Source: an uncultured cyanobacterium (lineage in GTDB: Bacteria; Cyanobacteriota; Cyanobacteriia; Pseudanabaenales; Pseudanabaenaceae). From it: a stretch of 64,000 nt of DNA. The translations under genes and the position numbers were made by a program. The notes under the pieces are model-generated. The model saw only the letters and a list, made by a program, of their open reading frames with translations, had not been told where the DNA came from and searched no databases. Positions 1 to 2,733 of this stretch are shown in pieces (the stretch's first letter is position 1; every line of letters begins with the position of its first letter). The stretch is taken from NCBI GenBank assembly GCA_963703315.1, contig OY969811.1, positions 4,288,001 to 4,352,000 on the forward strand, written 5' to 3'.

Positions 1-130
1 GCAGCGACTTCTCTAAAACACCCTCAACCCAAGCAGTCCTAACGTTATTCAGCAGCGCTTTACGATTGCGATACTCGTGCTTCGTTGGAGGAGGAAACTT
101 TACCCGCTCCTCCCATTCGGGCGGCTGGAG
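1..130 (-). CDS. Partial N-terminal region of a probable NACHT/STAND NTPase, continuing in frame after the UGA of the 131..553 ORF and running off the window edge
   Basis: Manual translation of 130->1 gives LQPPEWEERVKFPPPTKHEYRNRKALLNNVRTAWVEGVLEKSL, open with no ATG/GTG/TTG. EYRNRxALLxxVxxxWVxGVLEKSL resembles the segment preceding the P-loop in cyanobacterial NACHT proteins. The NTPase domain itself is outside the window. Confidence 0.6.
87..122 (-). promoter_or_regulatory. Predicted H-type RNA pseudoknot 8 nt downstream of the UGA stop (candidate recoding stimulator)
   Basis: On the minus strand GCCCG (122-118) pairs with CGGGU (106-102), and GGAGGAG (113-107) pairs with CUCCUCC (93-87); the stems are interleaved. 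Confidence 0.45.
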
Positions 131-553
131 TCAGTTAAATGTAACAGGAGCGTTAAAGACTGGATTCTGAAAATTATTTTTTATTTCGTCGGCTAATTTG
201 CTGTAGTTCTGAATTATAGTGGGTTGCCCATTAACAGTCTGTACAGTTGTTTGAATTTTCTGTAATAACTCATGATCAGCTTTCACCACCGCCTCAACTG
301 CCAAAATTGCCTGAGAAACTTCATTATCAGTCTTAGCCACAGATTCTAACTCTGACACCGCCAGTTTAAAATCCGCCGATGGTTCAGCTTGAGCGATCGC
401 CTCAGTCTTAGCCAGTGGCTTTTTCTTCAGCAAATTTACTAAATTACCGACTTGATGACTAACCGCCTCACCGAGCTTGTCCCCAGTCTTTTCAAATGCT
501 TTTTTTAGAATTAACGTCCCAACGGCGATCGCGGCTGTAGTCAGTGGCTCCAT
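131..553 (-). CDS. Small helical protein, NLR-associated effector-like (Bell/HeLo-like), with an N/Q/F-rich C-terminal motif
   Basis: 140 aa. Hydrophobic N-terminal helix MEPLTTAAIAVGTLILKKAFEKTG, helical body, C-terminal KNNFQNPVFNAPVTFN resembling amyloid-signalling tails. GAGAGG RBS-like sequence upstream. Confidence 0.6.
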   Translation of the reverse strand: MEPLTTAAIAVGTLILKKAFEKTGDKLGEAVSHQVGNLVNLLKKKPLAKTEAIAQAEPSADFKLAVSELESVAKTDNEVSQAILAVEAVVKADHELLQKIQTTVQTVNGQPTIIQNYSKLADEIKNNFQNPVFNAPVTFN

Positions 554-705
554 AAAAACCTCTCAATATTTGGTGTTAACGCCTTACTACAAAAATTTTA
601 CCTTGAAATCTTGAAATCATTCTGAGCGATCGCCATTTACTTTTACAGAGATTAAAGAGGCGATCACCCATCAGAGAAATGTGGAATTGAATATGTCTAT
701 CAAGT

Positions 706-1026
706 TCATTCTTCAACAATTGTAACTTGACCTTTACTGGCGGAATCTAGAGCCGCTAAAAGTTTTGATACTAAAGGCTTGAGCGCCGCCAAGCTATTTG
801 ATGGTGCTTGCAAAACCACTACAGCAATATCGAATTGTGGCAAATTCTGTTGAAAAGATAAATTGCGATCAACCGTCACAAAAACATCAAACTCTTCTAC
901 TGCAAGAGCTAAAAGCTTTCCGTTTTTGACTCCTGCCCATCCCATCTGCGGAACTGTTTTTACTTCATAGCCAATAATTTCTCTAGCAAATCGGCGATCG
1001 ATACATTCATCTAAAAGAATCCTCAT
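706..1026 (-). CDS. DUF5615 PIN-like (VapC45-type) toxin
   Basis: MRILLDEC...GW.G.KNG.LL..A...FDVFVTVDRNL..QQNL motif; start trimmed to the ATG at 1026; directly downstream of DUF433. Confidence 0.85.
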   Translation of the reverse strand: MRILLDECIDRRFAREIIGYEVKTVPQMGWAGVKNGKLLALAVEEFDVFVTVDRNLSFQQNLPQFDIAVVVLQAPSNSLAALKPLVSKLLAALDSASKGQVTIVEE

Positions 1027-1027
1027 A

Positions 1028-1246
1028 TTATGCCGCCACACTCAACAAGCTTCTTCCTAACTCTTCTAAAAAGTAAATTACCTGTTCCTTAGTCACAGTT
1101 GGAAAACCATCTAAAAAATCATCAATGGATTCTCCATCCTTGAGATAATCCAAAAGCGTCTGCACGGGAACTCTAGTATTCGCAAATACAGTTGTACCAC
1201 CCATAACATCGGGAGATCTGCTAATAAACTTTGAGTCTCTAAACAT
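1028..1246 (-). CDS. DUF433 family antitoxin
   Basis: ISRSPDVMGGTTVFANTRVPVQTLLDYLKDGESIDDFLDGFPTV is a typical DUF433 sequence; start trimmed to the ATG at 1246. Confidence 0.9.
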   Translation of the reverse strand: MFRDSKFISRSPDVMGGTTVFANTRVPVQTLLDYLKDGESIDDFLDGFPTVTKEQVIYFLEELGRSLLSVAA

Positions 1247-1319
1247 AAATTTGTGATATTTAGATATATTTAATATTTTAGCAACTATTGCTCTAGCGAT
1301 CGCCATCATCAAAAAACAA

Positions 1320-1643
1320 CTAAGCGACTTTAGATAAATCCTTTATTTGAATCTTGATAGAAGCACTTTCTAAACTGCTAAAAGTAAACTCAGTCCTAAA
1401 TCCCAGCTTATCCAACATCGAAAACAGCATATCCAAAGTAAACTTATCAATTTTTCCATTCACAATGTCCGACACACGCGGCTGAGTAACCGCCAACCTT
1501 TCAGCCGCCTCTTTCTGTGTCCAACCTCTATTCTCAATTATGTCTCGAATCATAATCGTCAAGTCAGCCTTCAAAACCGACTTACTAGCGACTTCAGGCT
1601 CCTCGATCGCCTGAAACGGACTTTCGTAAAACTTGATTGCCAT
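1320..1643 (-). CDS. XRE/HTH_37 (HigA2-like) antitoxin or regulator, no adjacent toxin
   Basis: KADLTIMIRDIIENRGWTQKEAAERLAVTQPRVSDIVNGKIDKFTLDML; start trimmed to the ATG at 1643. Confidence 0.85.
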   Translation of the reverse strand: MAIKFYESPFQAIEEPEVASKSVLKADLTIMIRDIIENRGWTQKEAAERLAVTQPRVSDIVNGKIDKFTLDMLFSMLDKLGFRTEFTFSSLESASIKIQIKDLSKVA

Positions 1644-1658
1644 AAATACTAAGCGTTT

Positions 1659-1694
1659 TGTCAAATTATACAAAATTTTATATAATTAGTCAAA
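1659..1694. promoter_or_regulatory. Imperfect inverted repeat, probable autoregulatory operator of the HigA-like gene
   Basis: ttgtcaAATTATAcAAAA/TTTTaTATAATTagtcaa immediately upstream of the start codon. Confidence 0.5.
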
Positions 1695-1777
1695 TAAACA
1701 AAAAGATTTGGAGTACTAAATTTAAGCGATCGCCACATCCATAAACCTATCAACAAACAGCGATCAGCTTTTTAATA

Positions 1778-2173
1778 CTAAGAAACACCTAAAAACTTCC
1801 TAAGTGCATTTTTATATACTTTTGGTAAACGTTTTGAAACTATCCCACCTTGCTGTATTTGCGACAGAATAGTAGGAGAAAAACGGCACTTTGGCATACG
1901 GCTACCCACACAAATTACTCTAGCTAATTGCTCACTATCCATCTCACGAGCATCCAGATAATTTATCACCGACTCACGCTTCACAAAATTAGGCACACCT
2001 TCTGTATTGGGTTGAAGAATACAACTAAGATCAGACTTGGCTCTGCGCGTAGTCACATTCACAAATAAATACTTATCGGGAGCAGTTTCCGCGATCGCAA
2101 TATAAAGGTGTTGATCATTCGGAGGTGTCTCCAACAAAAAAGCATCACCCAAATTCACGTTGATGCTTGTCAT
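1778..2173 (-). CDS. Putative toxin partner of the Panacea antitoxin (PemK/MazF-like fold suspected)
   Basis: Start overlaps the stop of the DUF4065 gene. GDAFLL...HLYIAI...LFVNVTT...SVINY pattern resembles MazF-like barrels. Confidence 0.5.
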   Translation of the reverse strand: MTSINVNLGDAFLLETPPNDQHLYIAIAETAPDKYLFVNVTTRRAKSDLSCILQPNTEGVPNFVKRESVINYLDAREMDSEQLARVICVGSRMPKCRFSPTILSQIQQGGIVSKRLPKVYKNALRKFLGVS

Positions 2174-2733
2174 TACGCACTCAGAACCTTATCTAAATAA
2201 GCCTCTCTAGCCGCCTCTTGTCTTATTGCCGCAATCTCCTCAGTAGTCTTGCCCATAAACCTCAACACATCATCAACCACAATCGGAATACGCGAACCAT
2301 CAGGATCTTTCCATTCAGGTAGATCGTGCGTCCATTCAGCAACGTCAAAGGGATTAAGATGTCCAAAAGTTCGATAAACCTCTTGAATGATTTCCTCTTC
2401 TTCTTCACAAAGATGATCAGTGCTAGGATCTCTTAATAGATAGATATTGTGGTTAACATCACGGATAGAAATAAACTTTTTCCAAAGTGGTAAAGCACCA
2501 TCAACAGACTTCCCCTTAATCAGATCATACACACCACTGAGAACAGGACCATAATCCATTGAGAAATAACAATCGCCAGTAATTGTTTGTTCTATACGTT
2601 CTAAAGCTATGCGATCGGCTATATAAAGCATCTTCAGCAAACCTAGATATTTCATAGGCTTACCGTGTAACTTTAAAAACATTGCTGCGGCTTCAACAGC
2701 TTTTTGAGGATGAAACCGAAATAAAATCGCCAT
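2173..2733 (-). CDS. Panacea (DUF4065/GepA/SocA-like) antitoxin
   Basis: LLKMLYIADR...ITGD.Y.SMDYGPV...VYDLIK...WTHDLPEW motif; start trimmed to the ATG at 2733. Confidence 0.85.
   Translation of the reverse strand: MAILFRFHPQKAVEAAAMFLKLHGKPMKYLGLLKMLYIADRIALERIEQTITGDCYFSMDYGPVLSGVYDLIKGKSVDGALPLWKKFISIRDVNHNIYLLRDPSTDHLCEEEEEIIQEVYRTFGHLNPFDVAEWTHDLPEWKDPDGSRIPIVVDDVLRFMGKTTEEIAAIRQEAAREAYLDKVLSA

Follow-up and report, generated by a model that had tools for sequence, protein, structure and literature searches.

The locus and its downstream element

The window, a stretch of 64,000 nucleotides of cyanobacterial DNA, holds at its beginning, on the minus strand, a small open reading frame that ends on UGA and runs in frame into a much longer one. 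The upstream ORF (131–553, minus strand) encodes 140 residues, a Bell-like helical effector with an amyloid-motif tail that would constitute the short product of the locus. It opens with MEPLT, its first helix is hydrophobic, and the predicted structure is helical over residues 6–108 and falls below a pLDDT of 50 in the tail; the start resembles the MEPIS-like start of effectors described in the available part of 10.1101/2024.11.07.622273. No Pfam family matched at cut-off, neither a fold search (best Z 5.6) nor a PDB sequence search gave a specific match, and the structural neighbours in the Atlas are unnamed or, at 18%, HetE-N. The features of a Bell domain (a helical bundle of about 100 residues, a hydrophobic first helix, an acidic residue 2) fit in a comparison made without a Bell profile, and the protein is termed Bell-like on these features rather than on a profile or structural match. 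Residues from about 113 to 140 (134–217, minus strand) form a BASS5-type amyloid signalling motif, near-identical to motifs in class C07, the BASS5 sequences, in the accessible part of the PMC8086366 supplement, as judged by eye. On the Bell side of that class, BASS5 tails are identical to those of loci of the present type such as L100 and L141; such genes are thus within the published set, recoding being unremarked in the part of it at hand.

Past the UGA, the host genome (G000) has another 650 codons in the same frame, which begin in the window (1–130, minus strand), run beyond its edge and end at G000:C1:4286181. This candidate sensor consists of a linker, a NACHT NTPase (PF05729, E 7.8e-12) and about six hydrophobic segments, its closest named homologs come from Pseudanabaena, and its first in-frame ATG, GTG or TTG is codon 66. 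Upstream of the pair (706–2733, minus strand) lie small toxin–antitoxin-like genes, namely a DUF433/DUF5615 pair, an HTH_37 protein and a Panacea (SocA-like) antitoxin with a 131-residue partner, and another DUF433-like ORF follows the sensor. The neighbourhood is a defence-island-like setting, in which PADLOC returned weak matches only.

The original prediction had described a stop, a spacer and an H-type pseudoknot at minus-strand positions 133–87, and all parts are found there. The in-frame UGA (131–133), in a UGA-C context, is the proposed recoded codon and is followed by an 8-nt spacer (123–130) whose length is invariant across the junction alignments A6 and A7. The 5′ arm of stem 1 (118–122) is separated by a 4-nt loop (117–114) from the 5′ arm of stem 2 (107–113), which lies within the stem 1 loop; then come the 3′ arm of stem 1 (102–106), an A-rich linker loop of 8 nt (94–101) conserved in sequence across the family alignments, and the 3′ arm of stem 2 (87–93), all on the minus strand. 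With a GC content of 0.62 against 0.42 for the upstream ORF, the element is also the GC-rich patch it was said to be. Its stem 2, with 7 bp, is the longest in the family, 4–5 bp being typical elsewhere, and the Shine–Dalgarno-like GGAGGAG arm is peculiar to this copy among the junctions compared. An internal start driven by this arm was considered and rejected, as a start codon is absent downstream of the motif.

Taken alone, the window copy is not beyond chance. The nested-fold z score is 0.15, from a folding program that cannot form pseudoknots, and a loose rule combining stop, stem 1 and stem 2 is satisfied after 82 of 3666 ORF stops in the host genome, which carries one copy only and no second, paralogous junction. 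A search of window positions 1–700 against Rfam gave no match at gathering score and a single match at E 4.4. These single-copy statistics stand at chance level, and support for the element comes from its homologs, where the same loose rule is satisfied by 167 of 200 distinct junctions. In metagenome run X1, possibly the source of this DNA, one contig is identical to the window junction.

Conservation of the element and its context in homologous junctions

The main set comprises 200 distinct junctions from 208 loci, all cyanobacterial, after exclusion of L145 and L166 (without the element) and of L127 (a duplicate); the two weakest rows of covariance model R2 (L246, L247) and two weak rows of model R3 (L353, L355) were set aside as non-elements. 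Want of structural conservation in homologs had been named as the finding that would speak against the original prediction; the opposite is seen, with compensatory changes across the 200 junctions. The predicted pseudoknot holds unevenly: stem 1 covaries and is firm, whereas stem 2 is usually conserved but short, shifts register and is missing at a few loci. Stem 1 begins 8 nt past the stop throughout the family, and its partners pair in 98.3% of cells in 70 distinct junctions and in 97.1% of cells in 98 more diverse ones, compared with 24–60% for slid partners. Both sides change at four of the five pairs, and the covariation score was reached by none of 500 shuffles. On a tree of 196 upstream proteins, joint changes number at least 25, at least 16 and at least 9 at stem 1 pairs 2, 4 and 5; non-partner columns on the same tree range from 0 to 13, and the signal is therefore partly block inheritance. 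The third position of codon +3, which is paired, is G in 197 of 200 junctions against a downstream background of about 10%. For stem 2, 58 of 70 junctions allow at least 4 bp at the expected offset, as opposed to 1–23 at 13 other offsets, the observed score was reached by none of 2000 partner shuffles, and independent-looking variants occur at L112, L143, L169, L251, L265 and L390, while the stem is absent at L058, L132 and L168. Stem 2 is thus weaker than stem 1 but supported.

The reading frame is conserved along with the structure. In 182 of 200 junctions the frame downstream of the stop is open for at least 200 codons or as far as the locus extends, whereas in the other frames this holds for none of the 200; in the remaining 18 it closes earlier, decay being common. 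Loops of 5, 8 and 11 nt within stem 1 all preserve the frame, and five loci with a 9-nt loop have lost one base further on, with the peptide altered and stems and frame kept. An ATG, GTG or TTG lies within 15 codons of the stop in only 4 of 200 cases. Codon +1 is CTA in 108 and CTG in 71 (together 179 of 200) and CCN in 9; UGA-C and UGA-CUA are leaky contexts according to the available text of PMC7026636. Directly 5′ of the stop, nearly all 200 junctions have C or T regardless of the amino acid encoded, which is possibly part of the signal.

To assess the stop itself, we relied on searches blind to it. A profile of the upstream motif matched in 71 of the 389 genomes of the family to which genome G420 belongs (79 rows, 72 loci retrieved), and together with four loci from another search TGA stands at 75 of the 76 examined, the exception being a frameshifted motif; in the host genome TGA makes up 290 of 2164 stops. 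Covariance model R2, which includes the stop, found the element in 71 of 151 genomes of G420's family, with at most five per genome, and in 13 of 151 genomes across the class. Model R3, built without the stop, found it in 73 of the same 151 family genomes (135 rows). Of these rows, the 132 with E no higher than 1e-4, assigned to loci by hand from their coordinates, all follow TGA, and the three weaker rows are one true element after TAA (L390) and two non-elements. Across the class, R3 matched in 18 of 151 genomes from nine families, its 20 rows comprising 17 with TGA and three with TAG (L399, L400 and L408, all outside the main family). As this stop-blind model finds mostly TGA, plus three TAG and one TAA, the element is strongly UGA-biased, yet not UGA-specific, and the four loci with TAG or TAA could serve as natural controls. 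R3 gave no match in 101 genomes of a Streptomyces family or in five other non-cyanobacterial genomes, searches run with no positive control and which a GC-rich version would escape, and none of 173 pattern matches in viral contigs was confirmed. A DNA pattern scan that demanded TGA, and which we do not count as evidence of stop bias, returned 26 loci, 19 of them cyanobacterial and the other seven chance matches without a Bell ORF.

What the element joins varies on both sides. Upstream, it follows CHAT domains at L227 and L231 and, at L283, an ORF without a Pfam match that we take from its motif to be hydrolase-like; the effector tails of the 200 junctions are enriched in N, G, I, T and F. Downstream ORFs are of NB-ARC-TPR, NACHT, kinase and membrane-anchored types. 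The element behaves as a portable joint between varied effectors and sensors, and the loci, being related, may stem from the shuffling of one module. At L242 a protein kinase domain follows the element, with a Bell-like ORF before it. At L199 (on a plasmid of Tolypothrix sp. PCC 7601), L107, L110, L122, L143 and L150, the partner is a membrane-anchored ORF of 212–221 codons and not an NTPase; RefSeq labels this ORF PsbP-related and places its start 90 nt past the stop. Paired loci of the present type occur 4–8 kb apart at G422:C123, G531:C14 and G486:C255 (L422-like tandem arrays), and tandem two-gene pairs at G421:C424 and G513:C82.

Close to the window locus a different layout is found. Six relatives with 80–90% identity over both flanks have a two-gene junction instead: TAA or TAG closes the small ORF, and the NACHT gene has a separate start (ATG or GTG) with a copy of the tail motif after it. 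More distant loci (47–55% identity) are arranged as in the window, with the same tail, a TGA, a spacer of 8 nt, the same stem of 5 bp, its loop 5, 8 or 11 nt long, and, in frame, a NACHT lacking its own start. The two-gene layout is the Bell/BASS-NLR arrangement published in 10.1101/2020.01.06.895854, as described in its available text. Two-gene pairs that belong to the same motif families but have a separate start number 18, and their stops are TAA (10), TAG (4) and TGA (4). A census of 74 Bell-like rows from 61 genomes, made with a profile biased to the element-bearing type and with classes assigned by eye, placed 40 next to an R3 element, 3 next to a divergent one, 18 in the two-gene pairs just mentioned and 13 as orphan or broken. 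Among the matches listed, metagenome runs X2 and X5 each hold both junction types (compared at L001:10052–10254), with contigs across the window-type junction at about 90–97% identity and a contig bearing 278 other letters instead, the length of the two-gene type.

The two layouts also differ in the amyloid motif, which is repeated downstream in 1 of 200 junctions of the element-bearing set and in 9 of 9 two-gene controls; at L328, an element-bearing junction, a second amyloid-like motif copy lies in the downstream ORF. A natural fusion, P0021, has Trp exactly at the stop position where its ortholog L321 has TGA. It is a single sequence, the one fused protein among two matches for the NB-ARC type; for the window type no fused protein was found among 19 matches.

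A readthrough model and its alternatives

The junctions have a conserved stop, spacer, stems and frame, and their sensors lack both a start and a second motif; a two-gene alternative and one Trp fusion complete the picture. This points to programmed, pseudoknot-stimulated stop-codon readthrough, yielding from one frame an effector and an effector–sensor fusion, as in gag/gag-pol, a reading to which we assign a probability of roughly 0.84. The bacterial cis-acting recoding stimulator of the original prediction is likewise favoured by the conserved spacer, covarying stems and in-frame start-less sensors. Most ribosomes would terminate at the UGA, giving the small Bell-BASS5 effector on its own. 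A smaller share, delayed by the stem or pseudoknot 8 nt past the stop and helped by the weak UGA-C context, would accept a near-cognate tRNA, probably that for Trp, and make Bell-BASS5-X-linker-NACHT-TM. Spacers of this length are thought to position the structure at the ribosome's mRNA entry channel (available part of PMC13517186). We infer readthrough itself, its rate, the inserted residue and the folding of the pseudoknot in vivo from comparison of the junctions. Because the sensor's amyloid motif would come from the effector's own coding sequence, the two motifs would always match and the effector would be in excess. On activation the NTPase would oligomerise, cluster the motifs and template amyloid folding of free effector, which might then damage the membrane in abortive infection; templating, cell death and an anti-phage role are proposed by analogy only, with Bab/Agp and fungal systems.

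Termination at the UGA followed by reinitiation, at a CUG just past the stop or at a later GUG or UUG, with the structure coupling or damping the restart, has a small chance of being correct. CTG at codon +1 in 71 of 200 junctions speaks for it, as do the GTG, TTG or ATG codons that precede the FxGR motif in 70 of 132 NB-ARC-type loci, where an internal start is possible, and databases annotate such starts (P0022–P0025 and L199), the sensor of P0022 beginning at codon +1. CTA and CCN together replace CTG at more junctions than have it, however, and there is hence no conserved start; the annotated starts conflict within one cluster, one of them falling inside Walker A, and in the window the first start, codon 66, comes after a helix that is conserved in two-gene and kinase-fused homologs. 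Moreover, a separately started sensor would miss the amyloid motif present in its two-gene sisters and would have no need of +1/−1 indels to keep frame with the upstream ORF. A-to-I editing of the mRNA, with the structure as recognition signal for conversion of the stop to UGG, would agree with the Trp of P0021, and all three stops found are convertible to UGG by A-to-G changes. This is nonetheless quite improbable, for the stop sits outside any loop, 8 nt before the stem, the fixed spacer fits the ribosome entry channel, and bacterial TadA edits in a UACG context, in which the stop here does not lie.

The same fused in-frame product is expected from translational bypass, in which the ribosome would skip the stop together with some of the element and resume in frame; known bypass signals, such as that of T4 gene 60, include a stop and a structure. 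We consider bypass highly improbable: there is wide variation in the codon preceding the stop, the element itself almost never contains an in-frame stop (1 of 200, at L187), as expected if it is decoded, and the Trp fusion is colinear. A UGA followed by a hairpin recalls selenocysteine insertion with the hairpin as SECIS, and ARAGORN calls a tRNA-SeC in the host genome. Against this, the host has neither a SelA/SelB domain nor an RF01852 match over cut-off, SelA is absent in five of five other carriers, and the element also follows UAG and UAA, so that selenocysteine is excluded in practice. The ARAGORN candidate (G000:C1:2474203–2474296; L063:10203–10296) was rejected as a false call, being a palindromic repeat antisense to a 1140-residue ORF; this ORF is restriction-modification-like, with several such in-frame repeat insertions. 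That the junction is the remnant of a nonsense mutation or deletion beside a chance structure would agree with the unremarkable single-sequence statistics and with the six close relatives that have a two-gene junction, and is given next to no weight, since stop position, spacer and covarying stem recur at 200 distinct junctions, across nine families.

Significance and relation to known systems

Structure-stimulated readthrough is a hallmark of eukaryotic viruses and is mainly known from retroviruses. We found no report of this element in the literature, although a mention in subscription papers or bioRxiv supplements is possible. The terms 'readthrough', 'read-through' and 'stop codon' are absent from the available texts of 10.1101/2020.01.06.895854 and 10.1101/2024.11.07.622273, word searches in the accessible text of PMC8195603, PMC7159879, PMC13506858 and PMC7918605 found no mention of the element, and reviews list, in the parts available, few bacterial readthrough examples and none such family. 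Both ingredients are of known kinds; their union, and a family of readthrough pseudoknots in bacterial genes, appear new. The Bell-like effector, BASS5 motif and start-less sensor, which the original prediction had not seen, give the proposed recoding a purpose. Readthrough would provide a third layout for amyloid NLR signalling, one that prevents sensor and effector from diverging, would account for Bell-BASS genes whose adjacent NLR is motif-less, and would imply incorrect, truncating start annotations for many cyanobacterial NLR genes. At 45 nt and with 200 variants occurring in nature, the element offers a direct way to test the mechanism on bacterial ribosomes, and it is a possible tool for making two products at a fixed ratio. 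More speculatively, these elements could be the first pseudoknot family that stimulates readthrough in bacteria: a portable module, carried by roughly half the genomes in a single large family of cyanobacteria, that assembles amyloid-signalling immunity within one frame, with the readthrough level itself regulated by RF2 level, stress or infection. We hold this wider proposal only tentatively and think it rather doubtful as a whole; if true, recoding would be a control point of bacterial cell-death immunity.

Among known systems, bacterial SECIS elements likewise pair a UGA with a structure just downstream, but they differ in that SelA, SelB and tRNA-Sec were not found here and that the present element is not restricted to UGA. 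Phage Q-beta A1, B. subtilis SacB and cat-86 use a leaky UGA without a dedicated tRNA, at a few per cent, and known bacterial readthrough consists of isolated cases, with no conserved family of downstream pseudoknots described in the available parts of PMC7026636 and PMC13517186. With the gag-pol signal of MoMLV, as covered in the same parts of these two sources, the element shares an in-frame stop, an 8-nt spacer, stem 1 at +12 and H-type topology; an excess of short product with low-level fusion is known for MoMLV and, by analogy, predicted here. Unlike that signal, it resides in bacterial chromosomal and plasmid genes, in a Bell/NACHT context and not in retroviral gag-pol, has mostly UGA-C where MoMLV has UAG-G, no sequence likeness being claimed, and has smaller stems (5–6 bp and 4–7 bp) with an 8-nt linker. 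It would thus resemble an MoMLV-type signal in its working, yet is no member of that class.

The Bell/BASS-NLR (10.1101/2020.01.06.895854) and Bab/Agp (10.1101/2024.11.07.622273) systems, in the available texts, have in common with the present loci a helical effector with a MEP start, a C-terminal BASS motif and an adjacent NB-ARC or NACHT gene. The likeness to Bell/BASS-NLR extends to the motif classes (BASS5 in the window, BASS7- and BASS9-like at other loci) and to CHAT and hydrolase-like alternative effectors, whereas the window sensor has membrane segments instead of TPR or WD repeats. The layouts given for Bell/BASS-NLR in the accessible text comprise gene pairs in which the motif is duplicated, and all-in-one proteins. 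The loci with the element, in contrast, have a single motif and an in-frame stop and lack a second start, and the matching motif that a separately started NLR carries in the two-gene controls is, in all but the one junction, absent from their sensors; on our reading, this missing sensor motif would be supplied by readthrough instead.
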